DNA of 64,000 bases from Escherichia phage F13, in the sequence record OP745617; one strand, written 5' to 3'. Of this stretch, positions 1,145-62,044 are shown one piece after another. The notes beneath the pieces were generated by a model, which was not told where the DNA came from, did not search any database, and saw only the letters and a program-made list of their open reading frames with translations. A program made the position numbers and the translations under genes. The stretch's first letter is position 1. Each line of letters opens with the position of its first letter.

Positions 1145-1168
1145 ATATCAAAAAGGTGAGCTAAATGC

Positions 1169-1197: not shown

Positions 1198-1228
1198 CTT
1201 TTCATCAAGACGAAAAGTGAGGTGAATT

Positions 1229-2398: not shown

Positions 2399-2420
2399 TT
2401 CAAAAAGGTGATCTAAATGC

Positions 2421-2448
2421 TTGCCTTTTTATTTGCCTGTATTATACT
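2421..2448 (+). promoter_or_regulatory. sigma70-like promoter (-35 TTGCCT, 16-bp spacer, -10 TATACT)
   Basis: Second copy of the conserved promoter block; followed by AAGGAG RBS and ATG at 2477. Confidence 0.5.
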
Positions 2449-2476
2449 TAGTTCATCAAGCAAAGGAGATTTGATT

Positions 2477-2779
2477 ATGAGTTACGACGAAAGGTTTGGC
2501 AGAAGTGGATTATTTCACGATGCTGTATGTAAGGACAGCCAAGATGTTGTCTGCGTATTCAACGTTGATTCTTACGGCGTGCTCAAACCGTTTAAAATCG
2601 GTGAGACATACGAATTGTTTCACGGATGGTTGACGCGTCGCAACAACCTTCCTGATATGGAAGTCTGGTGGATAGAATATAAGGGCCAGGCCCATCGCTG
2701 CAAGGTTGTAGAGGTGCGCGGCGTGAACTACTATCAATCTGTTATCAGCGGCTTTGTTTTTAAAGAGGGTGAGCTATGA
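2477..2779 (+). CDS. hypothetical early protein (100 aa)
   Basis: ATG with AAGGAG RBS; the longer ORF start at 2417 lies inside the promoter and is rejected. Confidence 0.45.
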   Translation: MSYDERFGRSGLFHDAVCKDSQDVVCVFNVDSYGVLKPFKIGETYELFHGWLTRRNNLPDMEVWWIEYKGQAHRCKVVEVRGVNYYQSVISGFVFKEGEL

Positions 2780-3081
2780 GTACCGAAGCAATGAAGAAAA
2801 AGATTTTGAACGCTTTGCAAGAAGCCGTGAACTGTGGTGCAATTAAAGAGTTCAAGGAGACGCAAGAAGGCGGTGAGCCAGTATTCTTCTTTAAGAATAA
2901 AAAGGACGGTGTAGCGGCAATCATGCTATTAAAGAATAGTGATGATACATTTATTCTTTGCGTCGGCGGTTACGACCTTGTCACTGATGATGCATTCATC
3001 ACTTGTGTCGACGGCCTTAATCCTATGTTGACATTTGAGCGTCGCGCCATCCGTGTTGCAACGTTTGGAGGGAATTTATGA
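2776..3081 (+). CDS. hypothetical early protein (101 aa)
   Basis: ATGA overlap. Confidence 0.45.
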   Translation: MSTEAMKKKILNALQEAVNCGAIKEFKETQEGGEPVFFFKNKKDGVAAIMLLKNSDDTFILCVGGYDLVTDDAFITCVDGLNPMLTFERRAIRVATFGGNL

Positions 3082-3263
3082 GTACCGAAGTCCATAACGC
3101 TTCAGCAATGGTAAGCTTTTACCGTAACAAAGGCGTGTCACTCGTTAAAACGCCGCAAGGCATGATGTTCTTTGGCACGCGATTCCTTAAGGCTTCGGAG
3201 CGTGAAACGCTGTCCAAGTTTGACCAGAAAACATTGCACGCAGTTTGGAGAAGACAACAATGA
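3078..3263 (+). CDS. hypothetical early protein (61 aa)
   Basis: ATGA overlap. Confidence 0.35.
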   Translation: MSTEVHNASAMVSFYRNKGVSLVKTPQGMMFFGTRFLKASERETLSKFDQKTLHAVWRRQQ

Positions 3264-3553
3264 GATTAAGCCTAGCTCAGATTCAGACATTATATCGCAT
3301 GGAAGACGGCACATCATACATGTTGCGCGGCGACCGCAAGAAGGCTTATGAGAAACGGCCTTCATTGTTTCACGACGTTAACGCGCCATCAATCCCTGTC
3401 TTATTCCGGCTGGGCCTTGTTGACTGGAAAGTGCCAGGAGAGAAAGACCCAACTCGATATTCACCGGTTGTGATGACAAAGAAAGGTCGTGCAGCATTAA
3501 AAGAAATTAAAGAGCATATGGCTGGAGAAAAATACTATGACATCAAATCTTAA
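3260..3553 (+). CDS. hypothetical early protein (97 aa)
   Basis: ATGA overlap; motif GAGAAGACAACAATG also precedes the gene at 3718. Confidence 0.4.
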   Translation: MRLSLAQIQTLYRMEDGTSYMLRGDRKKAYEKRPSLFHDVNAPSIPVLFRLGLVDWKVPGEKDPTRYSPVVMTKKGRAALKEIKEHMAGEKYYDIKS

Positions 3554-3717
3554 GGCCCGTTTGTTATTCATCAAGCCGCATGTGCCATATAAGATTAGTA
3601 AGCGCACCTGGCTTAACATTTACAACCGCAGCGGCGACCGTTGTCTGTACAAGGCGAAGCGACGCAAGAAGGTATATTCTTACACAACATCTATCAAATA
3701 AATAGGAGAAGACAACA

Positions 3718-4221
3718 ATGAAAATAGAACAACTCGAAGCAGTATTGGAAATGGCCGTAAAAGCTGGCGCAATCAGAAGCTATCGCCGCGAGAAGTCGGA
3801 AAACGATATGGTGTTTTGTCGCAACTTCTATATCGTCGGCAACCTTAATGACCACTACACCATCGAGTGGTATACTAACATGATGACGCTTAAGTCGCGC
3901 ACCATGGAGCTTTGGTGTGATGACATCTGCTTATCCAACACCCATCCATCCTACGACGTTGCATTGGCATTCTATTACGGAAGCCGTCAACCTGTCGCCC
4001 ACATCGGTGAGAAGCATGAGCATCTTAAGGCGCGACCAGAGGAATCAATGGAAGGTTGGATTGAATGGGCTGGCGGCAAGAATCCGGTGCCTGGTAAGAA
4101 GGTCATGTTGATGTGGAGGAATGAAGGGAAGTCTTCTTATTCATCCAATTCAGAAGGATGGCTATGGCAGCACAACGGAAGCGTTTATGACATCATTGCT
4201 TATCGCGTCGTGGAGGAATAA
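3718..4221 (+). CDS. hypothetical protein (167 aa) sharing a C-terminal domain with 5103..5528
   Basis: RBS GGAG; C-terminus WIEWAGGKNPVPGK...DIIAYRVVEE parallels the 5103..5528 product. Confidence 0.5.
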   Translation: MKIEQLEAVLEMAVKAGAIRSYRREKSENDMVFCRNFYIVGNLNDHYTIEWYTNMMTLKSRTMELWCDDICLSNTHPSYDVALAFYYGSRQPVAHIGEKHEHLKARPEESMEGWIEWAGGKNPVPGKKVMLMWRNEGKSSYSSNSEGWLWQHNGSVYDIIAYRVVEE

Positions 4222-9030: not shown

Positions 9031-9333
9031 ATGACTACTTTAATCTCTTCCATCCTTACTTACGACGAAGACCGTTTAACCGTTCGCTCTCTTATCGCCG
9101 CCGTTAACGCCGAACTAGAATCTAGCGCCATTAAGGTCCGCGCGGTTGCCTTCGTCGGTCTTTCCTTCGACGATATCAAGTACGCCGAACGTAGCGCCAT
9201 CCGCTTCGCGAAGACCGACGACGAAGCCGTTACCCTTATCGAGACGGTTACTCCGCGCGGCGAAACGTTAATTATCGTCGAGTATATCGACGTAGAAGGC
9301 GATAAGGCTTATAAATATTTTATCGCAAAATAA
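9031..9333 (+). CDS. small protein (100 aa), probable distant member of the same paralog family
   Basis: ATG with GGGAG RBS; 3' 200 bp of this gene is duplicated in the tandem repeat. Confidence 0.5.
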   Translation: MTTLISSILTYDEDRLTVRSLIAAVNAELESSAIKVRAVAFVGLSFDDIKYAERSAIRFAKTDDEAVTLIETVTPRGETLIIVEYIDVEGDKAYKYFIAK

Positions 9334-9744
9334 CGAAAAAGTGCTTTACTTCTTAGTACACTAAGACTATAATGTTTTATATCGAGAGGGGATGAGGTAG
9401 CGAATAGGTCGCTACCCTCCCGACTAACTAGGAGAATATTACGCGCGGTTGCCTTCGTCGGTCTTTCCTTCGACGATATCAAGTACGCCGAACGTAGCGC
9501 CATCCGCTTCGCGAAGACCGACGACGAAGCCGTTACCCTTATCGAGACGGTTACTCCGCGCGGCGAAACGTTAATTATCGTCGAGTATATCGACGTAGAA
9601 GGCGATAAGGCTTATAAATATTTTATCGCAAAATAACGAAAAAGTGCTTTACTTCTTAGTACACTAAGACTATAATGTTTTATATCGAGAGGGGATGAGG
9701 TAGCGAATAGGTCGCTACCCTCCCGACTAACTAGGAGAATATTA
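9139..9744. repeat. tandem direct duplication, 2 x 303 bp (9139-9441 and 9442-9744)
   Basis: Near-identical units read directly; each carries the gene 3' end, promoter (TTTACT-17-TATAAT at 9345-9373 and 9648-9676), leader hairpin and RBS. Confidence 0.85.
9442..9639 (+). pseudogene. promoter-less 3' fragment of gene 9031..9333 created by the tandem duplication
   Basis: Copy of the C-terminal coding part; at the junction the RBS is followed by ACG rather than ATG. Confidence 0.5.
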
Positions 9745-47844: not shown

Positions 47845-47901
47845 GATGCACCAGATAAATAAAAGGCCGCCAATCGGCAGCCTTGTTGATTTGATTGTCG
47901 A

Positions 47902-48762
47902 TTAAAACTCTTCTGCGTCGGTCGGAGTTTCATTGACAGGGCCAGCGGCACCGCTTGCTTCTTCCTGCTTGCTGCGGTCAATGTTAACGTTGCCGCCAAC
48001 TACGTCGTTGTGGAATGCCTTGGCGACTTCGTACAGACCTTTGTCCTGCACCAGACCTTCCAGCTCAAACTTCAGAACTGACCATGTATTGCCGTCTTTG
48101 GACTGGGATGCAGTGCCCATGCGAACGATGTTCATAAAGGTCGGCGGCGTTTTCAGACCCTGCGGAGTCTGAACTTTCTTCTGCTGCAGAGCTGTCATCA
48201 GCATGCGAGACGGCTTGATCATGGAAGAAGTCAGAGACAGCATTGCGCTACCAAATTCACCAGTTTCTTCGTTCAACAGAATTACGAAGTGGTTACGTGT
48301 ATCTGCGTAGTAAGGCGATTTCTTCTCGTGCACCTTGCCGTTTTCGTCCGGCACAAACACTTTACCGTTGATCTCAACAGCGCGCCCTGCCGCGACTTCT
48401 GCATCAACGTGCTCTTTGGTGAATTCACCTTTAAAGCCTTTATCGTCGGACTCGCGACCGCCCCAAAGGATGAAGGTGCGTTTGAATGCACAAGGGATGA
48501 TCTGCACGCCTTTCTTGCCGTCATACAACTCACCAGTGACGGTGTTGTAAAGCATGCCAGCTTTTGCGCCAGGAACGTGTTTCGGATCATCTTCGTCGAC
48601 CATAGGTGACATCTTCTGCAGGACGACGATAAAAGGAATGGCATACGCATCGGCATCGGCACCTTCAAAACCAGCGCCAAAATCGGTCATGTCGACAAAA
48701 TCGGCCATAGCGGACATCTGGGTGTTTTTCACTGCAACTTCGGTGGTTTCTTTCTTAGACAT
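47902..48762 (-). CDS. single-stranded DNA-binding protein candidate (T7 gp2.5-like)
   Basis: 286 aa; acidic C-terminal tail ending in Phe (TDAEEF); position in the replication module. Confidence 0.35.
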   Translation of the reverse strand: MSKKETTEVAVKNTQMSAMADFVDMTDFGAGFEGADADAYAIPFIVVLQKMSPMVDEDDPKHVPGAKAGMLYNTVTGELYDGKKGVQIIPCAFKRTFILWGGRESDDKGFKGEFTKEHVDAEVAAGRAVEINGKVFVPDENGKVHEKKSPYYADTRNHFVILLNEETGEFGSAMLSLTSSMIKPSRMLMTALQQKKVQTPQGLKTPPTFMNIVRMGTASQSKDGNTWSVLKFELEGLVQDKGLYEVAKAFHNDVVGGNVNIDRSKQEEASGAAGPVNETPTDAEEF

Positions 48763-48821: not shown

Positions 48822-49379
48822 TTACTTTTTGCTTTTAGGCAAGGTTATTTTAGCTTCTTTGTATTCAAAAACGCTAATATCTTCACTAACTGGATTGCCT
48901 GCTTCCAGCTGTTCTTTTACAAATGACTTCAGTGTAGCAGAATGAACGCCTTGTTTCAATGTGGCTTCAACGCCATCTTCACGCAGCGCGGCAACAATCT
49001 CTTGCGCCTGTTCGATTTCTTCGCGACCGAACTCAGCCGTGACGCTGGACTTGATCAAGCCGCCGTAACCGTTGTTGACAAGCCAATCGAAAACTTTTAA
49101 TTCGTTTTCTTTCTTGATTGAAGCATTCACCTTGGACTCGACCTTGATTTTGGTCTTGTCCTCAAGCTTGATTTCAGACACACCAAGCTCATCCATTACG
49201 CCAGGAAGCAAAACAGTTTTGATTTCACTGATGCGCTGCTTTTGCATATCAGCTTCATCTTCAAGCTCTGTCAAAGCTTCTTGACGTTCTGCAAGTTCAG
49301 ATACTAAGCGCGCAAGGCGCTCTTGAATGCTCTCAGGAGCGACCTGCGGCAAATCATCTTCCCAATTAATATTGCTCAT
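48822..49379 (-). CDS. hypothetical protein (185 aa), coiled-coil N-terminus
   Basis: ORF in the replication or recombination neighbourhood. Confidence 0.4.
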   Translation of the reverse strand: MSNINWEDDLPQVAPESIQERLARLVSELAERQEALTELEDEADMQKQRISEIKTVLLPGVMDELGVSEIKLEDKTKIKVESKVNASIKKENELKVFDWLVNNGYGGLIKSSVTAEFGREEIEQAQEIVAALREDGVEATLKQGVHSATLKSFVKEQLEAGNPVSEDISVFEYKEAKITLPKSKK

Positions 49380-49713: not shown

Positions 49714-51237
49714 TTAATTCATCTTTTTGCCGTCGAGGATGTGATCAGCAAGCATAGATTTCATGCTCAGTGAACGCTGAATTTCTTCATCGATGGTATC
49801 AACACCAATAAAATCAACATACAACACACTTGATTTGGTGCCGATGCGGTGATTTCGGTCTTCGGATTGCTTGCGCAGCTCGTTGTCATAGTTGCAAGAA
49901 TAATAGATTGCCAAGTCGGCGGCGGTAAGCGTGATTCCGATGCCTGCCGCTGCAGCGTGGCAAACCAAAACTTGTGTTCCACCGTTCTCGACTGTGTTTT
50001 TCTGGAAGTCATCAATCAAGAACTCTCGCTGCTCTTTCGACGTTTCACCGTTGTATACACCAGTGACCACGCCTTCAGACTCAAGCCAATCCTTAATCTG
50101 GTTCATCTCTTCCTTAAAGATGGCCCACACAATGAATTTGCGCTCTGGGTCGTCTTCCAGCACCCCTTCCACATAGTCCTTAAAGGCCGTGAATCGTGGG
50201 TTGTCTTCCATGTAGACCATCTCATCATACACCTTAACAAAGCCTGATGTCACCTGCTTCATCTTGGTGCGAGATGCGATCATCTCAAACTTAACGTTTT
50301 CTTCTTCGCCTTTGTACTCCATCAGATAGTTGTACTCATTCTTGAGTTCATCATATACATCGCGCTGCTTAGGCGACAACTCGAAGTCGATAAACTTGTA
50401 CACCTTCTCTGGAAGGTCCGGCAAGTATTCCGCTTTTGTCGCGCGGAAATAGTGCGGTTCCATCAGCCGGATAAGCTTGTCAAGGTTCTTGTACATCGGT
50501 CGGCCAAACTGGTCTTTGCGAGGCACTTGCGGAATGCCATAACCGTTGCCGCCGATTTTCTTGAGAATGGCCTGCATCTCTGGGTCGTGCGCTTCAAGCA
50601 GGACTGTAAATTCAGAGTTGAATGCACGGAACGATTTGGTGCCAAGCAAGCCAGCTTCAAGGAAGTGATATTGCATGTAAATATCAGCAGGCGAGCGCGG
50701 CAGCGGCGTACCGGAAAGGATTCGACGGGCCTTTGCCAGCCGTCCCAATTCCACAACCTTGATGGAGCGTTTGGCTGTGTTATTTTTGATACGCGTCGAT
50801 TCATCAATGATCATCAAACAGCGGTATTTCTTCAAGACCGACTCAATGTGTTGATAACCGACTGGTGTGTTGACGGTATCAATGTTGAATGAGAAGATGC
50901 GCGCAGGCACTTCGCCTTCAGGGTAGTGATCAGCAAACATCTTCTCCCAAATCGCCTTGCCCTTTTTAGTCTTCATCTTGTCATTGCCGCGCCAGTAATG
51001 CCCAATCCACTTGATGGAAAGGTGTTCTGGTGCTTCACGACGAATCCAGTTTGAGTGCACACCGTTAGGAGCGATGACAACCATGGCATCAAATGCGCCA
51101 GCGGCGAAGTGTTTTTCAAACTCTGCCAAAGCAGTCCAGGTTTTGCCAAGACCCTGCTCCATAAAATAAGCAAAGTATTTTCTGCGGCCTGCTTTATCAA
51201 GCGCCAATAATTGGTGGCGCATTCCTTGTGTTTTCAT
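49714..51237 (-). CDS. SNF2-family helicase
   Basis: 507 aa; GLGKT Walker A, DESTRIKN (DExx box), C-terminal helicase motifs. Confidence 0.8.
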   Translation of the reverse strand: MKTQGMRHQLLALDKAGRRKYFAYFMEQGLGKTWTALAEFEKHFAAGAFDAMVVIAPNGVHSNWIRREAPEHLSIKWIGHYWRGNDKMKTKKGKAIWEKMFADHYPEGEVPARIFSFNIDTVNTPVGYQHIESVLKKYRCLMIIDESTRIKNNTAKRSIKVVELGRLAKARRILSGTPLPRSPADIYMQYHFLEAGLLGTKSFRAFNSEFTVLLEAHDPEMQAILKKIGGNGYGIPQVPRKDQFGRPMYKNLDKLIRLMEPHYFRATKAEYLPDLPEKVYKFIDFELSPKQRDVYDELKNEYNYLMEYKGEEENVKFEMIASRTKMKQVTSGFVKVYDEMVYMEDNPRFTAFKDYVEGVLEDDPERKFIVWAIFKEEMNQIKDWLESEGVVTGVYNGETSKEQREFLIDDFQKNTVENGGTQVLVCHAAAAGIGITLTAADLAIYYSCNYDNELRKQSEDRNHRIGTKSSVLYVDFIGVDTIDEEIQRSLSMKSMLADHILDGKKMN

Positions 51238-51656
51238 GACAATTCCTCTAAATACTTGATGATGTGATGAATAGTTCCCTTCACGATTATCTCACGTTGA
51301 ACGTCTGCAGTATTATAACGCTTTAATTCAATAGAAGGGTGGACTAAATAAAACATCTTCTCAGAATCAACCTTAAGCAGAACAAATGATGGGTATTTCC
51401 AATCATTCCACGAAGAAAGAAAGCTGCATTGGCCTTTCTCAAATGCATTTCTGAAAGGTGCAGTGGTGGCCCTTGCAGGCCACGATTCAAAGAACTTCAT
51501 TTCAAGCCAAAAGCCGCGCCCTTTCCGGTTGGTGCCGATTACGTCCGGCACGCCATCACCAGTCATCGACTCGATTCGTTGAAGCTTCAATACCGATTCT
51601 GAATGCTTCTTCAAAGGCACGAATATGTATTTCTGCTCACGGTTATTTGTTGCCAT
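51234..51656 (-). CDS. VRR-NUC-like nuclease (PD-(D/E)xK)
   Basis: 140 aa; GDGVPDVIG...GFWLEMKF motif; commonly paired with SNF2 helicases in phages. Confidence 0.5.
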   Translation of the reverse strand: MATNNREQKYIFVPLKKHSESVLKLQRIESMTGDGVPDVIGTNRKGRGFWLEMKFFESWPARATTAPFRNAFEKGQCSFLSSWNDWKYPSFVLLKVDSEKMFYLVHPSIELKRYNTADVQREIIVKGTIHHIIKYLEELS

Positions 51657-54540
51657 CTGGATACACCTGTTTGATCACGTCAACGATGAACATGTCAATG
51701 CCTTCAAGCTTACGACCTTTCATCAGGAAGAATGCGCCGTTCCCGACGTTTTCAGCGATGTACTTCCCGTACTTCTGGAATTTCTCTGGACGAATCCTGA
51801 AGCGCATTGGCGAGTCGGTCGAGTCATCCTTGCACATAAGGTCGATGAACTGAGTCTCAAGCTTGTTCCCGTACTGGTCAAACTCTGCGTAGCGGCCATC
51901 AGCTTGAAGACCCTTTTTAAGCTTGCCGTGCTTTGTATAGATGCCGCGCTCAAGTCGTTTACGGATGCGTGTTGCTTCGTTCTCGTCCGCAAGCACTTTC
52001 TTTGTCAACTTGCCGATTACTATTGCGCGCTCGTCATCACCGACTTCCTTCATCTGGCGTATTGAAGCGCCGGACGTCACGCCAATCAGATAAGGGTCAT
52101 TATATGCCCATCCGAACTTTGTGTGCATCTCTGTCAGGTCGCCATATTTAACTTCAGCATTGGCCAATGCATCCTTCTGCTTTTGCGTTAAGGTTCCGGC
52201 TTCACGCGCTTCGATATATTTCATCGCCTTCACCATGCCGTACCCTTTCGCGTTCATGATGCCGCCGATTAGCTTTCCGTTCGCGATGGTCCAGTTCATT
52301 GAAGAGTGATCAGGGTCGATTGGCACATAATCCACGCCTTCCTTCGCAAGTTCACGTAATATCGCAATCGTCTGGTCTTCGTCCTTAGCAGCGCGTAAGC
52401 AGGCTGCGGCAAATTCCAACGGGTAGTGTCGCTTAAGCCACAAGGTCCAGTAGGTCACGACCGCGTATGACACGGAGTGTGACTTGTTAAAGCCCCATGA
52501 CCCGAACGTGGCCATCGCTTGCCAAAGCTTTCTTGCATCCGCTTCCGGTACGCCATTATTTATTGCGCCTGCAACAAAGTCCTCTCCAAGCTTGTTAAAG
52601 TATTCTTCACCCTTACGGCCTGACATTGCCTTACGTACAGCGGATGTTTTCGCCCAGTCGAATGAACCAATCTCTTTAACCACGGCCATGATTTGCTCTT
52701 GGTAAAGAAACACGCCGTAAGTCTCTTTTAGGTACGGCTCAATCTGCGGCACGTCGTACTCAATCGGCGCACGCCCTGCCGCGCGTTCAATGTATTTCTG
52801 GGCCATACCGGATGACAACGGGCCAGGTCGACCCAAAGCCGTCAGGTTGTCGATTTTGTTAAAGTTATCGACGTGCACAAAGTTTGTTACTGAGCGTACA
52901 GCGTCGCCTTCAAACTGGAAGATGCCTGACATCTTGTTTTCGTTAAGAATGTCAAGGACGCTTTGATCATCAAGCTTGATGCCGTAGAGCGTTTCAGCAT
53001 CAATAACGCCTGTATCAGAAATAATTCCGAGAGTACGAAGGCCCAACGCATCAAGCTTCAAAAGGTTAAGGTATTCGCTGTCAGGCTTATCAATTTGTGC
53101 AATCCCTTCTGCAGTTACAGTACAGTAATCAGAGATTGGGTCATTACACACAATGATTCCCGCTGCGTGAACACCTGTGTGGGACGGGTGAATCTCAAGG
53201 TCGCCCATGCAACGCGCGGCATCAGGATATTTGGCCACGAACTCTTGACCCGTGGTTGTTGTTGCAAAGGTATCCTCCAGGCCGTGACCATAACGGGCGT
53301 CACCGGATGAGTATTCAAGCAGTGCGTTTTTAATGTTGGCCGTTTCGTGGTATCCAATGTTGAACTTCTTACCAACCTGCGCCATTACTGAGTTGGCCTT
53401 AAGCGTGTTGATGTTGCCAAGCTTTGCAACGTTCATTTCGCCGTATTTCTCTTTAAGGTAATCAAACACCATGTAGCGTTTGGTATCTTCAAAGTCGATG
53501 TCGATGTCAGGAAGGTCGGCGCGGCTTACGTCGATGAATCGGGCAAACAGCAGCTTATACGGGATTGGGTCCACTTCCGTGATGCCAAGGCAATAGCAAA
53601 CAAGTGAACCAGCCGATGAGCCGCGAGCAGGACCGACGAGCATTTTTGTTTTTGCGAATCGTACAAGGTCCGCTACTACCAGAAAGTATGAGTCGAAATC
53701 TTTCAGCTGAATCTGGTGAATTTCTTCGTTGAAGCGGTCCTCATATTCCTGAGTCCATTCTTTGATGTGACCTGCTTTGAGACGGTACTCCATCCCCTCA
53801 CGCGCAAGCTTTACCATATCACCAGCAAGGTGAATAATCGGTGCCTTGCGTAATTTCAGGTCAAGTCCGACTATGCCGTTTGCTATGTCAACAGCATTGG
53901 CCGTTGCCTGATTCAGCTCATCTTCCGTCAAGATGCCTTTAAGCTGTTTGCGCAAGTCTTCCGCGTCAACGATGCAGTGCGGCTTGACCGTGTCGCGCAC
54001 TTCCCAAGCATAAGCAAAGTCAACGTGCTCAGGTGAAGGCATGTGGTTGTATCCGGTTAAAACCAGCGGCCTTCCGTTGCTGCGGTGAGCCAACACCTGG
54101 CGCTTAGCCAAAAGGAACGATGATGGGTTGACGTCTATATAATCGTAGTCCTCTGGCCGCAGCAACTCCACGGCACCGCCACAGAATTTAACGACGCCAT
54201 CGAGCGCACCGAACTCTGCACGGGTAAGCCCGCCGCGCTGCGTTGAAAGTGTTGTAGCGTTGTAAAAAGATTTTAAGTCAAGGGCCAATATCCAAGCCTT
54301 CGGTTTGAATCCCTTTTTCGGGTCCGCATCAGGGTCGATGATTGGAATCTCCATCCCAAACATAGGCTTAATATCATTTTTCTGGCATTCCTTTTCCCAG
54401 CGAACGTGACCCCATGTATTGTTATCAACTAATGCCGCGACTTCGCAGCCCAACTCTTTGAGCCGTGCTATAATTTCAGGATGCCGTCCATAAACTTCTT
54501 TGAACGTGTAACCGCTGCGAACTCTCAATTGTGGAAACAT
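51643..54540 (-). CDS. DNA polymerase III alpha-like (DnaE-type, PHP domain)
   Basis: 965 aa; N-terminal PHP; catalytic motif GPARGSSAGSLVCYCLGITEVDP...FIDVSRADLPDIDIDF. Confidence 0.9.
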   Translation of the reverse strand: MFPQLRVRSGYTFKEVYGRHPEIIARLKELGCEVAALVDNNTWGHVRWEKECQKNDIKPMFGMEIPIIDPDADPKKGFKPKAWILALDLKSFYNATTLSTQRGGLTRAEFGALDGVVKFCGGAVELLRPEDYDYIDVNPSSFLLAKRQVLAHRSNGRPLVLTGYNHMPSPEHVDFAYAWEVRDTVKPHCIVDAEDLRKQLKGILTEDELNQATANAVDIANGIVGLDLKLRKAPIIHLAGDMVKLAREGMEYRLKAGHIKEWTQEYEDRFNEEIHQIQLKDFDSYFLVVADLVRFAKTKMLVGPARGSSAGSLVCYCLGITEVDPIPYKLLFARFIDVSRADLPDIDIDFEDTKRYMVFDYLKEKYGEMNVAKLGNINTLKANSVMAQVGKKFNIGYHETANIKNALLEYSSGDARYGHGLEDTFATTTTGQEFVAKYPDAARCMGDLEIHPSHTGVHAAGIIVCNDPISDYCTVTAEGIAQIDKPDSEYLNLLKLDALGLRTLGIISDTGVIDAETLYGIKLDDQSVLDILNENKMSGIFQFEGDAVRSVTNFVHVDNFNKIDNLTALGRPGPLSSGMAQKYIERAAGRAPIEYDVPQIEPYLKETYGVFLYQEQIMAVVKEIGSFDWAKTSAVRKAMSGRKGEEYFNKLGEDFVAGAINNGVPEADARKLWQAMATFGSWGFNKSHSVSYAVVTYWTLWLKRHYPLEFAAACLRAAKDEDQTIAILRELAKEGVDYVPIDPDHSSMNWTIANGKLIGGIMNAKGYGMVKAMKYIEAREAGTLTQKQKDALANAEVKYGDLTEMHTKFGWAYNDPYLIGVTSGASIRQMKEVGDDERAIVIGKLTKKVLADENEATRIRKRLERGIYTKHGKLKKGLQADGRYAEFDQYGNKLETQFIDLMCKDDSTDSPMRFRIRPEKFQKYGKYIAENVGNGAFFLMKGRKLEGIDMFIVDVIKQVYPDGNK

Positions 54541-55082
54541 TATTTACTCCAGATGTCATATACGCCAATTTGTTGGCAGACTTTGTGCAGTAATATTACG
54601 TCGTCTAATGCACGGTGCTTCTGTTCATATTTTCCGAAATATAATTCATACAACTCTTGAAGCTTAACTCTTCGGCCAAAAATAGGCAAGGTTTGCTCAA
54701 CTGTACATATGTTTATTTCTGGAAAATTAACATCATCAAGCGTAAGTCCTTCGCGCTGTAGTGCATAATCAAGAATGTTTTTATCGAACGCATGGTTGTG
54801 CGCGATAGTTGCATCAGTCTTCTTGAAGATTTCTTTTAGCTGCGGGACGAAATTGATGAACGGTGGATTGCACTCAAGGTCTTCATTTGTTAATCCGGTA
54901 ATCTTTGTGATGATTTCTTCGATCACAATTTCAGGATTAATTATGAATTCAAAAGTTTCAAGAATCTCTTTGCCGTCTGTCAACAGACCTGCAAATTCAA
55001 TAGGGCGCGGCTGCATCCCAAGCGGCGCTTTCGGGTGCACTGTCAATCCGGTTGTTTCGAAGTCATAAGGGAGAAATAACAC
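54540..55082 (-). CDS. DnaQ-like 3'-5' exonuclease (DEDDh)
   Basis: 180 aa; Exo I YDFETTG, Exo II HNHAFD, Exo III HRALDD. Confidence 0.7.
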   Translation of the reverse strand: MLFLPYDFETTGLTVHPKAPLGMQPRPIEFAGLLTDGKEILETFEFIINPEIVIEEIITKITGLTNEDLECNPPFINFVPQLKEIFKKTDATIAHNHAFDKNILDYALQREGLTLDDVNFPEINICTVEQTLPIFGRRVKLQELYELYFGKYEQKHRALDDVILLHKVCQQIGVYDIWSK

Positions 55083-55136
55083 ATTAGCCTCCTACAAAAA
55101 GGCCGCCCATTAGGACGGCCACAGATTCACGATTCG

Positions 55137-55688
55137 TTATACAGTGTACGGAGTACCGTCTTGATTCAAGCGCACGATAAACTTCAAATCAACGCCGATG
55201 ATTTCACGCGTATCAAAGATCACATAGTTGTAACGACGTTGACCAGCAATGTTCGGGTTGGTATGAGAGTCAGTTACAACTTCCTGTGCAACCTGAATAC
55301 CTTCTTCTTTAAAGAACTTACGCCATTCAGCAAGTTCAGCGGCAGTCACGTGCATGCCAAGGTGGCTGACCTGATTGTCATGCGCATCGATATATTCGAT
55401 GTTTTCGTTAATCCAGTTGCAGCCCATTGTGTAGTCAAGGATTTCAAGCTCAAGAGGCTTACCAGCGCCGCCATCAGTACCGTTGCCAGCCTGATAGTTG
55501 AAGCGCAAGTCAGCTTCATTGGTGCAATCGTCGCGACGACCTTTAAAGTCATCAGCTTCAAATACGCGACCAGTAGCAACAACATGATCATGGAACCATT
55601 CTGTCAGGCCGATTTTAGCCAAGAAATCCTGTGCGCGCTGAGCATCTGGAATTGACAGGGCGATTTGTTCAATTTTAAAATGTGGCAT
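55137..55688 (-). CDS. VOC (glyoxalase/bleomycin-resistance-like) family candidate
   Basis: 183 aa; two beta-alpha-beta-like modules; low-confidence fold guess. Confidence 0.3.
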   Translation of the reverse strand: MPHFKIEQIALSIPDAQRAQDFLAKIGLTEWFHDHVVATGRVFEADDFKGRRDDCTNEADLRFNYQAGNGTDGGAGKPLELEILDYTMGCNWINENIEYIDAHDNQVSHLGMHVTAAELAEWRKFFKEEGIQVAQEVVTDSHTNPNIAGQRRYNYVIFDTREIIGVDLKFIVRLNQDGTPYTV

Positions 55689-55784
55689 TTTGTTTCCTTA
55701 ATTAAATATTATTGATTAATTACTGCGTTGTCTTCGTCCTGTTTCTTTTCAGGAGCGGGTGTGACAACTTCAAGTGTTCGTGAT

Positions 55785-56468
55785 TTATTTACCAAATGGA
55801 ATATCAGTGCCAGACATAAAGCGCCATGCGCCCGTAATTAAGATATGGCGAATGAAGTCAGCAATTACTTGCGGCTCAGTCTCCAATCCATTCATCAGTG
55901 CCTTTTTCTGGTATTCAGCGGCGTATTCAGGAGTCCAGCCGCGAGTCGCGCAAACGGCATCTTCAATCTGTTTAGACATGCCAGTGCCGCGCAACTTGTT
56001 AGGACTAATAGAGAATACCGTGATGCCGTACTTAGGCGTAAGTTCGTGAGCCATCTGCTTGCTGATCATAAGCGCAGCGGCCTTGGATGCATTATAACAC
56101 AAGCTGGACGTCATAGGAATATGCGCAGCATTTGAAACGATGTTGATCACAAAACCTTTGTTTTCGATAAGACCTTTCAGCGCGGCCTGAGTCGTGTTAA
56201 CGAAAGAGAATGCATTGGTGTGCATAACGCGGTTAAACTCTTCATAGTTTACATCTTCAAACCAATTGTTAGAGTTGACACCAGCACAGTTGATCAAGCC
56301 TTCAACATCATATGGGCTTAAAATTTCTTTCATCTGTTTAGCATCGCGGACGTCATATCCGTATGCTGAATCGATGCCAAGCACGTTATGACCGTAAGCG
56401 CCAAGGGTGTCAAAAATAGATTTACCAAGACCGGAATTGGAACCTGTTACAACAATTACTTTTTTCAT
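55785..56468 (-). CDS. short-chain dehydrogenase/reductase (SDR)
   Basis: 227 aa; cofactor motif VTGSNSGLGK (TGxxxGxG) and catalytic YNASK. Confidence 0.75.
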   Translation of the reverse strand: MKKVIVVTGSNSGLGKSIFDTLGAYGHNVLGIDSAYGYDVRDAKQMKEILSPYDVEGLINCAGVNSNNWFEDVNYEEFNRVMHTNAFSFVNTTQAALKGLIENKGFVINIVSNAAHIPMTSSLCYNASKAAALMISKQMAHELTPKYGITVFSISPNKLRGTGMSKQIEDAVCATRGWTPEYAAEYQKKALMNGLETEPQVIADFIRHILITGAWRFMSGTDIPFGK

Positions 56469-56533: not shown

Positions 56534-57406
56534 CTATTTATTGAAATTAATATTATGGGTGTTTACAAGACGTTCACACATGGCGCTATAAACACCATCG
56601 TCGTGTATTGAGTCTTCGTGCTTCAGGCCGCTGATTGCGAAGCGTGTAAGCTTGACAATCTTAAGCTCGAACAGATGCCACATGTGGTAGTCTTCCGGCG
56701 TTTTCAACGTTACGCCATTAGGGAAAAGCACCTGCATAACCTGACCTACCATCACAGCGTTATCGCCATAGACAGCGTTGCGCTCACGGAAGGTCGCTGC
56801 CATTGCATCAAGAATATCGGCGGCAGTTGCCGGAGATTGTTCAACTTCCACAGCCTTAGTCTCTTCTTGCCCTGTTGCGCTTGGATCAATTGCTAATTGT
56901 TGCACCACTTCACCTGCTTTGCAAAGATTAAATGTAAAAGCGATTTTATTTTGAGCAACGGAGTTATAATACAATGCTTCATCTTGCATCCGCGCGAGTA
57001 CGTCTTGTCGGTCGTCGAATACATTGATGATTCGATAATCGCCGTGCCGCAAAGCGTGCGATAGCCATGCAGATTTCATAATAGTTGATGGACGTTTGTC
57101 GCCATAGTCTCTCATCTTGATTGTAAATTCATCAAAAGGGAAAACATTGTCCAGACGTTCAAAAGTCACTTGTCTGTATTTTTCTGGCCTTGCAGTCCAA
57201 TATTCAACCGCCTCACCGCGAAGAGATGCCGACTCTACTGCTGATGCAATGTGAGGATAGAACTGATCATAACCAATACCGCTGTGATAGTCATCATAGT
57301 CTGACAACGGACCTGCCACCTTGATGCGGTCTAAGCGCCAACGGTCATCAAACAGAGTTCCGTCAAGGTCGAATACGTTTAAGATTTGGTTATTTTTGAT
57401 ACTCAT
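56534..57406 (-). CDS. HAD-family phosphatase domain fused to a C-terminal domain of unknown function
   Basis: 290 aa; HAD motif I FDLDGTL, WTARP, K, NVFDD; about 120 aa of unassigned C-terminus. Confidence 0.5.
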   Translation of the reverse strand: MSIKNNQILNVFDLDGTLFDDRWRLDRIKVAGPLSDYDDYHSGIGYDQFYPHIASAVESASLRGEAVEYWTARPEKYRQVTFERLDNVFPFDEFTIKMRDYGDKRPSTIMKSAWLSHALRHGDYRIINVFDDRQDVLARMQDEALYYNSVAQNKIAFTFNLCKAGEVVQQLAIDPSATGQEETKAVEVEQSPATAADILDAMAATFRERNAVYGDNAVMVGQVMQVLFPNGVTLKTPEDYHMWHLFELKIVKLTRFAISGLKHEDSIHDDGVYSAMCERLVNTHNINFNK

Positions 57407-58206
57407 CCTTTTGATACTCCATCTTTGGCAACCGGATTATTGGTGATTGGCATCGCATCCCAAAACTGGATGCGCAACTCTTCTTGCTGTGCAGTGGTAT
57501 CCATCCAATCACGATACCAAGGGCAATGGGCCTTGCCATGGCGAGGGAATGCGCACTTGCCCATACCGATGCATTGCGGCTGTAGTAAAGGATTAGCCCA
57601 CGGGTGCACCTTGAGGACTTCCGCTACCATCGCACGGAAAACTTCCTGATACTCGCCTTGAGTACGCGTGCACAAGCGGTTAGAGGCCATTTGTTGTAGA
57701 GTGCGCAAGTTGAACTTTGCCATGATATGCGTTTGCATATTAGAAGGCAACACGGCACGTGCATCTTGAATCTCTGCGCCAGCCGCGCGAAGTTCTTGGT
57801 ATAGGGCGTCAATGGTTGCCATTGCATCATCCCATTTCTCTGCCAGTTCAGCAGCCTTCTCGTCATGACGAGTCCATCCCTTTGGATCATCCTCTGGGTA
57901 AGTGAATTTGGCAGGACGAATCGCATCAAACGCTGACGACTCCTGAGCGCGGCTTGTTCGTTCTTGATATGCACCTGTTCGTGTGCGCACCATCTGATGA
58001 GTCATATTCTTTGATACATCAGTGATGTCAAAGATATAGTCAACAAAGTCGAAAGGTGACTTTATGGTGTCAAGCATGTAGCGCCAGTGCTCTTGCTTCT
58101 CTGATTCTGTCATCTCAGAGACTGGCTTACCAGCCATGCGCGTATTCTTTGTTTCCAGCAGAAGGTCAAGTGCATCTTGGGTGTATCGAATTAATTCAAC
58201 TTTCAT
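57403..58206 (-). CDS. divergent flavin-dependent thymidylate synthase (ThyX)-like protein
   Basis: 267 aa; N-terminus and core align with ThyX (PFDFVDYIFDI...HQMVRTRTGAYQERTSR; ARAVLPSN) but RHR is RTR; Cys-rich C-terminal extension. Confidence 0.55.
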   Translation of the reverse strand: MKVELIRYTQDALDLLLETKNTRMAGKPVSEMTESEKQEHWRYMLDTIKSPFDFVDYIFDITDVSKNMTHQMVRTRTGAYQERTSRAQESSAFDAIRPAKFTYPEDDPKGWTRHDEKAAELAEKWDDAMATIDALYQELRAAGAEIQDARAVLPSNMQTHIMAKFNLRTLQQMASNRLCTRTQGEYQEVFRAMVAEVLKVHPWANPLLQPQCIGMGKCAFPRHGKAHCPWYRDWMDTTAQQEELRIQFWDAMPITNNPVAKDGVSKG

Positions 58207-58219
58207 TTTAATTATCCTA

Positions 58220-58666
58220 TTAACGGTAGTTAACTAGTTGCTGATCACCAGAGAAGGTGCAATGATAAACGAATTGTGCGTTATAAAGCAACTGAAAACT
58301 TTTCTTTGGTTCATTATTAGAACTCATTGATGTAAAGATTTCTGCACCAGAACGGTTTTCACCAATCAGGTTGATAAAGCCGCCAGTTGAACGAGGCTGA
58401 ACGAAAGTGAAACGTTGCATCCACGGAGTGCGGTTGGCACCTTTCCCTGTGAATCCTTGAATCTGAATATTCAGGCCTTCTTGCTCGTTCACACCGATGT
58501 AAGTGGTAATTGTTGCGCCAGTCGTTGCTGCAGTCTTGCCGTCCATCGCTTCGCAATCGTAAACAGCGATTGAATCGGAAGTACGGACAGCGGCTTCAGT
58601 CGCTTCCATATACATGGTTCCGAGAATAGCAGTTGCGGCAAGCGCGATTCCAGTGATTCGTTTCAT
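58220..58666 (-). CDS. small secreted protein (148 aa)
   Basis: Signal peptide MKRITGIALAATAILGTMYMEATEAA; two Cys. Confidence 0.45.
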   Translation of the reverse strand: MKRITGIALAATAILGTMYMEATEAAVRTSDSIAVYDCEAMDGKTAATTGATITTYIGVNEQEGLNIQIQGFTGKGANRTPWMQRFTFVQPRSTGGFINLIGENRSGAEIFTSMSSNNEPKKSFQLLYNAQFVYHCTFSGDQQLVNYR

Positions 58667-58731
58667 TTTCGTTTCCTCTATGAGTTCTGCTTCAATGATT
58701 AAAGTATACGCCCATTGAAGCAGAAAGCAAA

Positions 58732-59727
58732 TTATTTATTAGCAATATAAGCAAATTTTTGATAGTTATTTGCTTTGATGAGTTTTTCAACTTCAACAAG
58801 GTCATGAGCAACGTCATCAAGCAAAATGTTTCGCCAAGTAGCAAAGCGACCGACACTAAATACGTTCAAATCCATGGTCAGCTGTAGGAGTAGAGCGTGT
58901 CGCAAGTCTTTCGGAATGTCGACAATCTTGCCATACTTCTGGTCGACCTTTTCAACTTCTTCGAGATCGATGTCACTCCATGATAGGCCAAAGGCTGTCA
59001 ATACTTCGTCAACTTCTGCACGCAACTTAATGTCACGGTAACGAGTAATGCCGCCAGCGGCTTCAACTGCGGCTTCACTTACGCTAACCAAAGGAATTGT
59101 TTCAATGATCAGTGTGTCACCAGTGATTGATGCGCGGTAAGTTCTGACGGAGTAGTCAGGAAAGTAAATGGTTTGATACAGTGCACACTTGCGCTTAATC
59201 TTAAAGCGGTAAACACGAATGTTTGCCTTATCGAATGAGAAATCAATCTTTTGATCAATCCCAGCAAGCTTCATCATGACTGGCAGCGGCGACGTGTTGA
59301 TGATTGGCGTCTCGCTATAGCCGCAAAGAGTATCAACAGGAGTATTAAAGAATATGCGGTCACCCAGTTTGTCGACAAGCTGATCATAAAAGTCATCAGG
59401 CGCAATATAACGCGTTGCAGTTTTAAGCTTCATGATTGAGCGGCTACCGAATTGATTAGTGACCTTCATGGAATACATATTGGCAAGGTTGATTGGGCAA
59501 TGGTCGTGGTAGTAGTTGCCGCGAAAATACACAGCCTTGTCAACTGTCACGGCCTTAAAAGGGATTCCGGTAATACGGCTTACTTCTTCGCCGCGAAATC
59601 GTAGCAAAGCCTTGTGCTGTGGCGCTCGTTCCCCTGCTTCGTACACAATGGAGTTCGGGAAGTGACACGCGGTAATAAGTCCTGCCAAACCGCCGCCGAT
59701 AATCATTACAGGTTGTTTCATGTTCAT
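58732..59727 (-). CDS. FAD/NAD(P)-binding oxidoreductase
   Basis: 331 aa; N-terminal Rossmann motif VMIIGGGLAGLITA. Confidence 0.55.
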   Translation of the reverse strand: MNMKQPVMIIGGGLAGLITACHFPNSIVYEAGERAPQHKALLRFRGEEVSRITGIPFKAVTVDKAVYFRGNYYHDHCPINLANMYSMKVTNQFGSRSIMKLKTATRYIAPDDFYDQLVDKLGDRIFFNTPVDTLCGYSETPIINTSPLPVMMKLAGIDQKIDFSFDKANIRVYRFKIKRKCALYQTIYFPDYSVRTYRASITGDTLIIETIPLVSVSEAAVEAAGGITRYRDIKLRAEVDEVLTAFGLSWSDIDLEEVEKVDQKYGKIVDIPKDLRHALLLQLTMDLNVFSVGRFATWRNILLDDVAHDLVEVEKLIKANNYQKFAYIANK

Positions 59728-59860
59728 TTGTCCTTTGTGGGTGATATGAGAAGTATAATAGCTAAATTATTTTACAGCAACAAGTCATTTCTATTTAGTA
59801 CAGACGAAAAAGACCCACAACAAGTGTGGGTCAATTACCGCTATATAACCGTCCTACAGG

Positions 59861-60706
59861 TTATTCCGCTTGATCACCGTCTTCGGCATTGTCGTTGGAT
59901 TCAACATCGACAAACTCGATGTGGCCCATCTCTTCCAGCTTGCTCAGGTAGGAGCGAACGGAAGCGCCAAACAGTTGATCTTTAACTTTTTCGCCCAGCT
60001 CATCGATAGACTGCGCCACGCCAACTTCGCCTTCTTTGATCGCCGCCAGAACGCGTCCACGGGTGGAATGCTCTTGCGGCTGGCTCAGGCCATTGCCGGT
60101 GTAGATGAAGTGAGTGGCTTTTGCACGACGCTGACCGTTTGCCTTTTTAGCAGCCTTGCGCTCTGCGATGGCTTTGCGACGTTCTTCAGCTTCTTTCTTA
60201 CGCTGTTCTTTCTGCTGTTCTGCAGCTTCTTTAGCCGCAATCTTAGCAGCTTCACGCTCTGCCTTGCGTTTCGCTTTAGCTTCTTCTTTGGCCTTCTCTT
60301 TTTCGGCCTTCGCTGCAGCACGGGCTTGATCACGCTCTGCTTTCTTGGCCGCAGCCTGCTCAGCTTTCAGGCGCTTGGCTTCTTCTTTAGCCTTTGCCTT
60401 TTCGATTTCTTTTGCTGCTTTAGCGGCTTCACGCTCTGCTTTCTTAGCAGCAGCCTTTTCTGCACGCTCTTTAGCTTTCTTAGCTGCTTCTTCAGCACGC
60501 TTCTGCGCCTTCTCATCAGCAGCCTGCTTGCGTTTCAGCGCAGCTTCTTCACGCTTGGCTTGTTTTTCCTGCTCACGCTTCTGGCGCTTCTCTTCGGCTT
60601 CTTTCTTTTTAGCCAGGCGTTTTTCTTCAGCCACGCGACGACGTTCTGCTGCGGCTGCTTGTTTTTCTTCTTTAGATAATACTTTGATTGCTTCGGCCAT
60701 ATTCAC
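59861..60706 (-). CDS. Lys/Ala/Glu-rich low-complexity protein with C-terminal globular domain
   Basis: 281 aa; about 190 aa of KEA-rich helix then about 80 aa of ordinary sequence; opposite-strand ORF is a shadow. Confidence 0.5.
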   Translation of the reverse strand: MNMAEAIKVLSKEEKQAAAAERRRVAEEKRLAKKKEAEEKRQKREQEKQAKREEAALKRKQAADEKAQKRAEEAAKKAKERAEKAAAKKAEREAAKAAKEIEKAKAKEEAKRLKAEQAAAKKAERDQARAAAKAEKEKAKEEAKAKRKAEREAAKIAAKEAAEQQKEQRKKEAEERRKAIAERKAAKKANGQRRAKATHFIYTGNGLSQPQEHSTRGRVLAAIKEGEVGVAQSIDELGEKVKDQLFGASVRSYLSKLEEMGHIEFVDVESNDNAEDGDQAE

Positions 60707-60859
60707 AGTCCTTAAATAAATTAGTTTATTTTATATTCCCCGTTTGGGATAACTTAATTATGCCTTCAGTTGCCGCCAGTAGCAACTAAAAACTATGGCG
60801 GCAATGCCACTTTAATTAAACTGATTTTCAGTTTTATTTTTCGTAAATTTACGTCAACA

Positions 60860-62044
60860 TTAACGCGCTTTCAAATCACGGTACACGGTCAGATTCTTCT
60901 TAGCACGGGTGATAGCGGTGTACATCATCTTGGAGTACGGAACGCCGCGCAAGATTTCTTCCAGCACGCACACATTATCCCACTCGCTGCCTTGCGATTT
61001 GTGCACCGTGATGACATAGCCATAGTCCATCCCGCCAACAGCGCGTTGCGCTTCTTTGCGCACTTCCTGATCAGTAGAGAAGGAAAGAGGATTGATCTTC
61101 ACCTTTATATCTTTACCATCAGTTAATGAACGCAAGTTGACATACATTATTTCATTCGACTCATCTTCATCCCTTTCAAAGTCCGGCACTGGCTCATAGC
61201 TAATAACAATCCCTTGCTCGCCATTACAGAATCCTGGACCGTGTTGGTTGAATGTGCAAATAACCTTCTCGCCGATTCCTGGCATTGGCGTTATACGTCC
61301 GCTCACTTGCCGTAATAATGAATTCCATTTATCTTTGGTGCTATTATAGGAGCAAATAATTTGATCATCTTCGCCCATGAATTTCTTCAATGCAGTAACG
61401 CGCGGCGATTCTGCCAATACTTTGACGTCATCGTATTCACGCGGGGGAAGGCGGTTGCCTTGGCGCACGAAGAAGGAGGCGCGGATTATATTGGACTCTT
61501 TCCCTTGCCGCATGATTTCGGTTAACAGCACGTCAACGGCATCTTCAGTAAAGTAGGCGGCGGCTTTTACCGGAGGGACTTGTCCAATGTCGCCTAATGC
61601 CAGGACAGGGATGCGGTGATCAAGAAGGCGCTCTGTGTCCCACTCGCCAACCATCGACGCTTCATCGAGTACAACAAGGTGCGGCCTTTCATCCAGCTTT
61701 GACTTTCTCGAAAAGATTGGCTCATTGTCGTCATTTACGCCGCGCACGTTATAGATGAACTGGTGAAGGGTCTTAGCGCCACGACAGCCTTTTTGCTTTA
61801 ATCGGCTTGCAGCCTTTCCGGTCGGCGCAATATAGATAGCTCCATACTCACCGACACAACGGCGCACAATCTCGCGAGCAATAGAGGTTTTACCAGTCCC
61901 TGCATAGCCAGCGATGAAAAACACGCGCTTCGTCGTTTTACCGTCCTGCAATCGCTTGTACCATGCAACGGCTTTCTCGATGGCGTCGATTTGTTGCGCG
62001 TTAAACTGAATCACTGGCTCATCATTAAATTCTGGAATGTTCAT
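60860..62044 (-). CDS. Dda/RecD-like SF1 DNA helicase
   Basis: 394 aa; Walker A GYAGTGKTS, Walker B LVVLDEASMV, C-terminal VITVHKSQGSEWD...YTAITRAK. Confidence 0.7.
   Translation of the reverse strand: MNIPEFNDEPVIQFNAQQIDAIEKAVAWYKRLQDGKTTKRVFFIAGYAGTGKTSIAREIVRRCVGEYGAIYIAPTGKAASRLKQKGCRGAKTLHQFIYNVRGVNDDNEPIFSRKSKLDERPHLVVLDEASMVGEWDTERLLDHRIPVLALGDIGQVPPVKAAAYFTEDAVDVLLTEIMRQGKESNIIRASFFVRQGNRLPPREYDDVKVLAESPRVTALKKFMGEDDQIICSYNSTKDKWNSLLRQVSGRITPMPGIGEKVICTFNQHGPGFCNGEQGIVISYEPVPDFERDEDESNEIMYVNLRSLTDGKDIKVKINPLSFSTDQEVRKEAQRAVGGMDYGYVITVHKSQGSEWDNVCVLEEILRGVPYSKMMYTAITRAKKNLTVYRDLKAR

Follow-up and report, generated by a model that had tools for sequence, protein, structure and literature searches.

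The 64,000-nucleotide stretch of DNA analysed here, from Escherichia phage F13 (sequence record OP745617; the whole stretch is called the window below), encodes at positions 51643-55082 a DnaE-type DNA polymerase and, next to it, a DEDDh 3'-5' exonuclease. Very probably, the phage has a replicase of its own and this locus encodes its catalytic core, whose two subunits are a DEDDh proofreader and a short-format DnaE; their genes are coupled and stand first in a four-gene cassette. The initial annotation had recognized a DnaE-like polymerase with a separate, adjacent DEDDh exonuclease at this place, and this identification is borne out by the open reading frames (ORFs), by Pfam and PHROG matches, by an AlphaFold2 model of the polymerase searched with Foldseek, and by the active-site residues. 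The exonuclease gene (54540..55082 (-); 180 amino acids, GTG start) encodes an epsilon/DnaQ-like proofreader reduced to the exonuclease domain alone. It is preceded by a Shine-Dalgarno sequence, AGGAGG (55088..55093 (-)), read from the sequence with a 5-nucleotide spacer to the GTG. The polymerase gene (51643..54540 (-); 965 amino acids, ATG start) follows at once, the stop codon of the exonuclease and the start codon of the polymerase sharing one base (TAATG). Successive overlaps continue through the cassette, with 1 nucleotide between exonuclease and polymerase, 14 between the polymerase and an ORF of 140 amino acids, and 4 between that ORF and a gene of the SNF2 family. From this layout, the exonuclease and polymerase genes are predicted to be translationally coupled.

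The polymerase is a family-C enzyme of the DnaE type. It matches the Pfam families DNA_pol3_alpha (PF07733, 3e-63) and DNA_pol3_finger (PF17657, 2e-37) and belongs to PHROG 405, 'DNA polymerase' (3e-271). An AlphaFold2 model built on 54 sequences of its clade is confident (predicted local distance difference test, pLDDT, 86.5; predicted template modelling score, pTM, 0.79). Over its full length, Foldseek aligns this model with the DNA polymerase III (Pol III) alpha subunits of Taq, M. tuberculosis, and E. coli (E 1e-41 to 6e-48; template modelling score, TM, 0.68-0.75), and the matches to PolC-type structures are far weaker (E 1e-25 to 1e-27). At the sequence level, phmmer matches DnaE structures of the PDB across residues 240-798. 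The catalytic aspartates D345, D347, and D497 correspond to E. coli D401, D403, and D555, and none of them varies among 114 clade members. Within NCBIfam, the only model passed is the general superfamily model TIGR00594 (474 bits against a cut-off of 434), and no equivalog or subfamily model for DnaE1, DnaE2, or PolC reaches its cut-off, the DnaE1 model PRK05673 giving 495.7 bits against 1002 and the DnaE2 model 330 against 939.

Four regions can be delimited along the protein. The PHP domain (53836..54540 (-); residues 1 to ~235) is a seven-stranded beta/alpha barrel according to the strands of the AlphaFold2 model. Its Pfam match (PF02811) is barely over the cut-off (26.7 against 26.4 bits), and local Foldseek matches include the E. 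coli PHP-epsilon chimera (4GX8/4GX9) and the PHP domain of RNase AM. The domain is uninterrupted, that is, it carries no inserted exonuclease, the hallmark of PolC. It is followed by the polymerase core of palm, thumb, and fingers (52336..53835 (-); residues ~236-735), delimited from PF07733, PF17657, the phmmer matches, and the invariant aspartates. Between the fingers and the OB fold lies a helical region (52030..52335 (-); residues ~736-837) that is about 55-60 residues shorter than in E. coli and that contains a conserved block, L792..AEV.[FY].DL.EAHTK[WF]G..Y..P.L.GV.SG in the clade residue profile. In the hhalign alignment, the phage GVTSGxSI of this region falls opposite E. coli LYLTGHPI. 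The C-terminal OB fold (51664..52029 (-); residues 838-959, with an insertion at 853-896), defined from AlphaFold2 secondary structure, locally matches OB folds such as those of OBody, RPA, and AsnRS. A tau-binding C-terminal domain is absent, only 6 residues following the last OB strand of the model, and many polymerases of the clade terminate in ...IKRID. For the C-terminal third, hhalign and AlphaFold2 secondary structure were used, because a global MAFFT alignment of clade members and E. coli DnaE forces end-to-end pairing and is unreliable there.

The initial annotation had described the polymerase as PHP-containing and had suggested a check of the metal ligands. The fold is indeed present, but the metal site is not. 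The canonical ligands are H-H-D/H-H-E-H-C/H-D/N-H, at positions occupied in E. coli by R10, H12, D19, F44, D69, H83, G134, D201, and R203 (PMC3666897). In the phage protein these positions read R6, R8, E15, N40, E64, A82/K81, G122, H166, and P168, so that E64 is the sole canonical ligand out of nine, against four of nine in E. coli. The mapping obtained with MAFFT (114 clade members plus E. coli) agrees with that from the hhalign profile alignment, and both agree with the strand ends of the AlphaFold2 model. The eighth position is an aspartate in most of the clade and a histidine (H166) in the phage of the window. An alignment-independent observation concurs: residues 1-245 hold a single histidine conserved in at least 90% of the clade (H45), and it stands at a non-ligand position. 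The phage PHP is thus best regarded as a structural domain that has kept its barrel and lost its metal site, and it is predicted not to be a zinc-dependent proofreader of the Taq or M. tuberculosis type because eight of the nine canonical ligands are gone. Where the PHP site is degenerate, a separate epsilon-like exonuclease is found as a rule (PMC3666897), and accordingly a dead PHP site leads one to expect a separate proofreader.

Such a protein is encoded immediately upstream. The exonuclease matches Pfam RNase_T (1e-21) and belongs to PHROG 192, 'DNA polymerase exonuclease subunit' (2e-37). Its five DEDDh residues are intact, D7, E9, D100, H156, and D161 corresponding to epsilon D12, E14, D103, H162, and D167, and the motifs Exo I (D7-x-E9), Exo II (D100), and Exo III (H156-x4-D161) are all present. 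By these criteria it can be assigned to the DEDDh superfamily as a DnaQ/RNase T-like member. It stays below the NCBIfam cut-offs for epsilon (TIGR00573, 37 against 71.5; TIGR01406, 43.8 against 222.7), and it comes closest to the exonuclease domains found in PolC and in DnaQ-type proteins; among solved structures, its nearest relative by sequence is a PolC-type exonuclease domain (2P1J). In the alignment, the chain stops at residue 180, where the QTSMAF clamp motif of epsilon begins, and nothing in it corresponds to the last ~60 residues of epsilon (from about residue 183). E. coli epsilon binds alpha through its C-terminal segment (PMC2528190). Since the phage exonuclease stops where QTSMAF begins, it lacks both the clamp motif and the alpha-tethering segment. 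No fusion of exonuclease and polymerase was found among 120 clade members retrieved.

As the initial annotation had remarked, no sliding clamp or clamp loader is visible in the window, either in the annotation or in Pfam and PHROG scans. Its suggestion that such genes lie elsewhere in the genome is refuted, no clamp-like gene being present in the ~4.8 kb outside the window or in the whole ~68.5-kb genome as represented by phage vB_EcoM_SP13 (SP13 below). The annotations of SP13 and of its better-annotated sibling Bas101 contain no clamp or clamp loader gene, nor did Pfam and PHROG scans reveal one among 30 proteins comprising every unannotated non-structural ORF of at least about 125 amino acids together with the genes outside the window. 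A PHROG match named 'clamp loader' (E 7e-4) turned out to be a P-loop match within the Dda-like helicase. Unannotated proteins of middle size were also considered as cryptic clamps and set aside, none being clamp-like: SP13_070 is of Rossmann type, SP13_071 is of K/E/A-rich low complexity, and SP13_080 gave no matches.

The known elements that could dock the core onto host factors are likewise missing. The internal clamp motif of DnaE1 is close to QL[S/D]LF, with positions 1, 4, and 5 being critical (PMC3919608). No Q-x-x-[LMIV]-[FLWY] occurs anywhere in the 965-residue polymerase, and a strict clamp-motif search of the six-frame genome translation returned two antisense frames only, and no real phage ORF. 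Opposite E. coli QADMFG, the phage clade reads (A/M)HTK(W/F)G in an hhalign alignment of low confidence, so that the glutamine and the hydrophobic residue at position 4 are both missing. Without a tau-binding C-terminal domain, the polymerase therefore has no link to the clamp loader either. Reliance on host accessory subunits, as proposed by the initial annotation, thus finds no sequence support: the tau-binding domain, Q-x-x-[LM]-F, and the epsilon tail are all missing.

Comparison with known family-C systems places these features in context. Like the E. coli Pol III core, the phage pair combines a DnaE polymerase bearing a degenerate PHP site with a separate DEDDh proofreader, the two systems using the same catalytic residues, and the fold of E. 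coli alpha is matched at a TM of 0.68-0.73. The differences are substantial, however. E. coli alpha has 1,160 residues against 965 in the phage polymerase, which lacks the tau-binding domain and any QADMF equivalent, and E. coli epsilon has 243 residues against 180 in the phage exonuclease, which lacks the clamp motif and the alpha-binding tail. The E. coli core also has a theta subunit, for which the phage system has no equivalent. In E. coli, ~27 kb separate dnaE from dnaQ; the phage genes are adjacent and overlapping. The two polymerases are about 30% identical in the profile alignment, so the phage gene is not a recent capture from the host. In PolC, the DEDDh exonuclease is inserted in the PHP domain, whereas the phage exonuclease is a separate protein. 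In Bacteroidetes, DnaE1 carries an N-terminal exonuclease fusion; the phage gene order, exonuclease then polymerase, mimics this fusion, but the proteins are separate.

The locus is not peculiar to this phage. Over its 3.4 kb it matches Escherichia phage vB_EcoM_SP13 (OP352608.1), a member of the genus Wifcevirus, at 100% identity, and about 27 further Wifcevirus genomes at 94-97%. The window corresponds to the ~68.5-kb unique genome of SP13 in circularly permuted form, and lacks record positions ~57147-61932 alone (~4.8 kb). In OP352608.1, the two products are annotated as 'DNA polymerase III alpha subunit' and 'DNA polymerase III subunit epsilon'. The replicases of Wifcevirus phages such as vB_Eco4M-7 are orthologs with 94-100% DNA identity. 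Those of Pbunavirus (PB1-like) phages, including ORF55/ORF56 of 14-1 and gp058/gp059 of Banzai, share 58% protein identity for the polymerase and 56% for the exonuclease. In Pbunavirus 14-1, the order is ThyX, PNK, exonuclease, polymerase, small ORF, SNF2 helicase, two conserved unknowns, MazG, and ligase. The replicase part of this order is thus the same, although the FabG-like and glyoxalase-like genes found at the PNK/exonuclease junction in Wifcevirus are absent from 14-1. More remote examples include Cronobacter phage Ss1 (42 kb, annotated as a podovirus), whose polymerase is 37% identical and in which an ORF of 189 amino acids, 33% identical to the exonuclease, overlaps the dnaE start. 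In two phage-sized metagenomic loci, the polymerase is 35% identical with an RNase_T gene upstream at a 4-nucleotide overlap (L010), or 43% identical with the RNase_T gene ~1.2 kb upstream and not adjacent (L009). The cassette of exonuclease, polymerase, 140-amino-acid ORF, and SNF2 gene is conserved in Wifcevirus, Pbunavirus, and wider relatives.

By tblastn, DnaE homologs are found in 1,413 of 50,697 phage records, with 376 near full length, and exonuclease orthologs in 361 phage records, mostly from Pbunavirus. Short-format DnaEs are also present in phages of Pseudomonas, Xanthomonas, Burkholderia, Serratia, and Aeromonas. The protein database contains thousands of relatives of the polymerase, and a search for representatives uncovered a large radiation of short DnaEs of ~900-970 amino acids on contigs of at most 87 kb. 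This search gave mostly metagenomic short DnaEs, and no named cellular sister group of the short phage enzymes was found in it. Some clade DnaEs of ~1,190-1,260 amino acids (P0115, P0095, and others) are ~250 residues longer and match in two to three stretches. P0115 carries the intein splicing domain PF14890, and inteins appear to have invaded the polymerase of this clade repeatedly. Among tailed phages as a whole, family C is the rarest polymerase family, with 947 of 18,382 genomes against 6,560 for PolA and 2,857 for PolB (PMC11348598; see also PMC4889955), in agreement with the earlier statement that most of these phages use family A or B polymerases. The Wifcevirus/Pbunavirus pair has already been described as homologs of Pol III alpha and epsilon (PMC7048862, PMC12390725). 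The pairing of polymerase and proofreader is therefore known and ordinary for the lineage, being universal in close relatives and common in distant ones, a distribution that the initial annotation had said would lower its interest. The residue-level anatomy given above is a modest addition to the known pair.

Beyond the cassette, the locus belongs to a larger replication module. The third gene (51234..51656 (-); 140 amino acids) overlaps the 3' end of dnaE by 14 nucleotides and the SNF2 gene by 4, and has a counterpart at the same position in Pbunavirus 14-1. It falls in PHROG 2165, 'DNA helicase', and bears the same label in several GenBank records; it is far too small for a helicase, and the label is probably a propagated mis-annotation. 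Neither a Pfam match nor a PDB sequence match was obtained for it. A PD...E-x-K-like pattern (GVPDVIG...WLEMKF) can be seen by eye, on which reading the product may be a candidate nuclease of the PD-(D/E)xK type. The fourth gene encodes an SNF2-family translocase/helicase (49714..51237 (-); 507 amino acids; SNF2-rel_dom 1e-21, Helicase_C 6e-11), which is also present in Pbunavirus 14-1 and in L010. It is followed by an ORF of 87 amino acids, a DUF7307 (Pam3 gp33-like) protein (48822..49379 (-); 185 amino acids; Pfam 3e-37), and a Pam3_Gp34-like protein (47902..48762 (-); 286 amino acids; Pfam 4e-86). Pam3_Gp34, DUF7307, SNF2, and D5-like genes also accompany the divergent, 35%-identical short DnaE in L010. 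The resulting seven-gene block is flanked by the two strongest terminator-like hairpins of the region, both being pattern matches from a consensus scan. One, with a 9-bp stem, closes the block (47863..47884 (-)). The other (55101..55120 (-); 8-bp stem with 7 G-C pairs, followed by a T-run) lies in the gap that separates the exonuclease gene from the glyoxalase-like gene, 19 nucleotides ahead of the GTG, and is taken from its position as the predicted upstream edge of the replicase block. On its far side, between the PNK and exonuclease genes, 55137-56468 (-) encodes a FabG-like short-chain dehydrogenase (227 amino acids) and a glyoxalase-like protein (183 amino acids, sub-threshold Pfam match). 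This pair looks like an insertion specific to the Wifcevirus lineage that ends at the hairpin 55101-55120.

The Pam3_Gp34-like protein has a beta-rich core and a disordered acidic tail ending in ...TDAEEF (AlphaFold2 pLDDT 78). Its terminal phenylalanine, F286, is invariant in 46 sequences, with the consensus ...AEGF. Tails of this kind are characteristic of SSBs (single-stranded DNA-binding proteins) by which polymerases are recruited. A sequence search of the PDB gave no match. The best Foldseek E against the PDB was 8e-3, at a TM under 0.3, with RPA and SSB heading these weak matches. Against a viral library, strong matches were to uncharacterised phage proteins only, SSB-named proteins matching weakly (E 1e-4 to 4e-3). 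From its tail and these weak fold matches, the protein may be regarded as a candidate SSB-like partner of the replisome. The genome further encodes a RepB-type primase, a Dda-like helicase, an ATP-dependent ligase, PNK, ThyX, and MazG, as well as a VapE/D5-like primase-helicase located outside the window. DnaE is the sole DNA polymerase in the genome annotation (SP13, Bas101).

Taken as a replicase core, the two proteins would work as follows. The DEDDh exonuclease would supply proofreading to the polymerase in trans; as it has no alpha-binding tail, its contact with the polymerase would have to differ from that of E. coli epsilon. With a probability judged to be somewhat below even, the core would be assembled not into the host Pol III holoenzyme but into a replisome built by the phage, whose parts would include the VapE/D5-like primase-helicase, the RepB-type primase, the Dda-like helicase, and the ATP-dependent ligase. 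The Pam3_Gp34-like protein, with its acidic Phe-terminated tail, could possibly act as an SSB-type tether. T7 gp5, a polymerase without a tau link, is kept at the fork with gp2.5, an SSB, through the acidic Phe-terminated tail of the latter. In B. subtilis, DnaE3 is held at the fork via the SSB C-terminal tail (PMC3919608). To both, the acidic Phe-tailed protein encoded by the phage module offers an analogy only. A more far-reaching proposal, that the short DnaE and its tail-less DEDDh partner form a self-contained family-C replicase independent of clamp and tau and retained at the fork by factors of the phage such as the D5/VapE-like helicase-primase, the Pam3_Gp34-like tail, or both, is put forward tentatively, its probability being judged to fall somewhat short of even.

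Several points weigh against this reading of the locus. The link between exonuclease and polymerase is a genetic one (the TAATG overlap and the conserved adjacency), no biochemical report on the polymerase of any phage of the clade was found in the literature examined, and the SSB-like view of the Pam3_Gp34-like protein comes from its tail and from weak fold matches. Moreover, the conserved block at residues 792-824 occupies the position of the E. coli clamp motif, with F809-G810 ((W/F)809-G810) opposite F924-G925 of QADMFG in an alignment of low confidence. Through this block the polymerase might touch the clamp, or else a phage partner, in a non-canonical way. Nearly all bacterial DnaE1 enzymes need the beta clamp for processivity, and even without a canonical motif a degenerate or structural clamp contact is conceivable. 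It is possible, and only slightly less probable than a replisome built by the phage, that the replicase is host-dependent and that the phage core borrows the beta clamp and clamp loader of the host through such a contact. In keeping with this alternative, no clamp or loader of the phage was found in the genome, clamps are usually encoded by larger viral genomes only (PMC4889955), and the clamp motif is present in 99% of bacterial DnaE1, whose processivity normally depends on it (PMC3919608). However, motif positions 1 and 4 are A/M and K in the phage enzymes, Q-x-x-[LM]-F is absent from the polymerase and from genuine phage ORFs, the polymerase has no tau-binding domain, and the exonuclease has no epsilon clamp motif. 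The short format is in addition kept across phages of very different hosts, which a host-independent module fits more easily.

Two other explanations concern the roles of the individual proteins. That the polymerase is a DnaE2-like repair or error-prone enzyme rather than the genome replicase is the least credible of the readings considered, for no other DNA polymerase is annotated in the genome, the gene is coupled to that of a proofreader, and the protein scores nearer the DnaE1 models (496 bits) than the DnaE2 model (330 bits, against a cut-off of 939). The resemblance that prompts this explanation is one of architecture: bacterial DnaE2, like the presumed ancestral family-C enzyme, is defined by the order PHP-Pol3-(HhH)2-OB without a C-terminal domain and by a disrupted PHP, with a clamp motif that is non-canonical or absent, as in the phage (PMC3919608). 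The label 'error-prone DNA polymerase' is also carried by some relatives in GenBank records. Against this, the best structural matches are replicative DnaE1 enzymes, and the gene lies among the primases, helicases, and ligase of a complete replication module. ImuA and ImuB are not among the genome annotations (SP13, Bas101), no search aimed at them having been made. It is also very improbable that the 180-residue DEDDh protein is an independent nuclease, engaged for example in turnover of host DNA or RNA or in anti-defence, which would leave the polymerase without proofreading. The missing alpha-binding segment of epsilon, the failure to pass any NCBIfam epsilon cut-off, the breadth of the RNase_T superfamily, and the displaced RNase_T gene of L009 would all suit such a nuclease. 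Yet its gene shares a one-base stop/start overlap with dnaE and stays adjacent to it across 33-100% identity, its nearest matches are PolC/DnaQ-type exonuclease domains, and the dead PHP site calls for a separate proofreader.

Some observations on the rest of the genome may be recorded here. Positions 9139-9744 of the window hold a perfect tandem duplication of 303 bp (2.0 copies, 100% identical, 101 codons per unit) among the early genes, close to SP13_007/008. In the SP13 record, which shows near identity in the other parts that were compared, the unit is present once, and the duplication could be a real difference or one of assembly. The OP352608.1 record itself (72.4 kb) contains an exact 3.9-kb terminal duplication (1-3899 = 68486-72384), by which SP13_001-009 are repeated as SP13_104-112. 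Sibling genomes of SP13 have been deposited at ~68 kb, and this duplication may represent true direct terminal repeats or have arisen in assembly. SP13_070 (L002:11878-12867 (-), corresponding to window positions ~58732-59721 (-)) encodes a protein of 329 amino acids in PHROG 4828 with no Pfam match, whose GxGxxG Rossmann-type start, MIIGGGLAGL, suggests an FAD/NAD-binding oxidoreductase beside ThyX and the nucleotide-metabolism genes. SP13_071 (L002:13007-13846 (-), window ~59861-60700 (-)) encodes 279 amino acids, of which about two-thirds are K/E/A-rich, coiled-coil-like low complexity, the C-terminal remainder being a small globular region that leads into an acidic tail. Its only family match is PHROG 4765.

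The polymerase-proofreader pair adds nothing new in itself, having been recorded in GenBank and in papers on Wifcevirus and Pbunavirus. Its anatomy is modestly useful, given that therapy makes wide use of Pbunavirus phages and that Wifcevirus phages have become cultivable on an E. coli K-12 derivative from which cryptic prophages have been removed and in which the O-antigen has been restored (BASEL collection). If the core does operate independently of clamp and clamp loader, it would provide a compact model for how family-C polymerases achieve processivity by other means, and would represent a minimal C-family replisome that has spread through a large phage radiation. Very fast replication has been reported for Wifcevirus (PMC11990801), to which a clamp-independent replicase, if confirmed, might possibly be linked.

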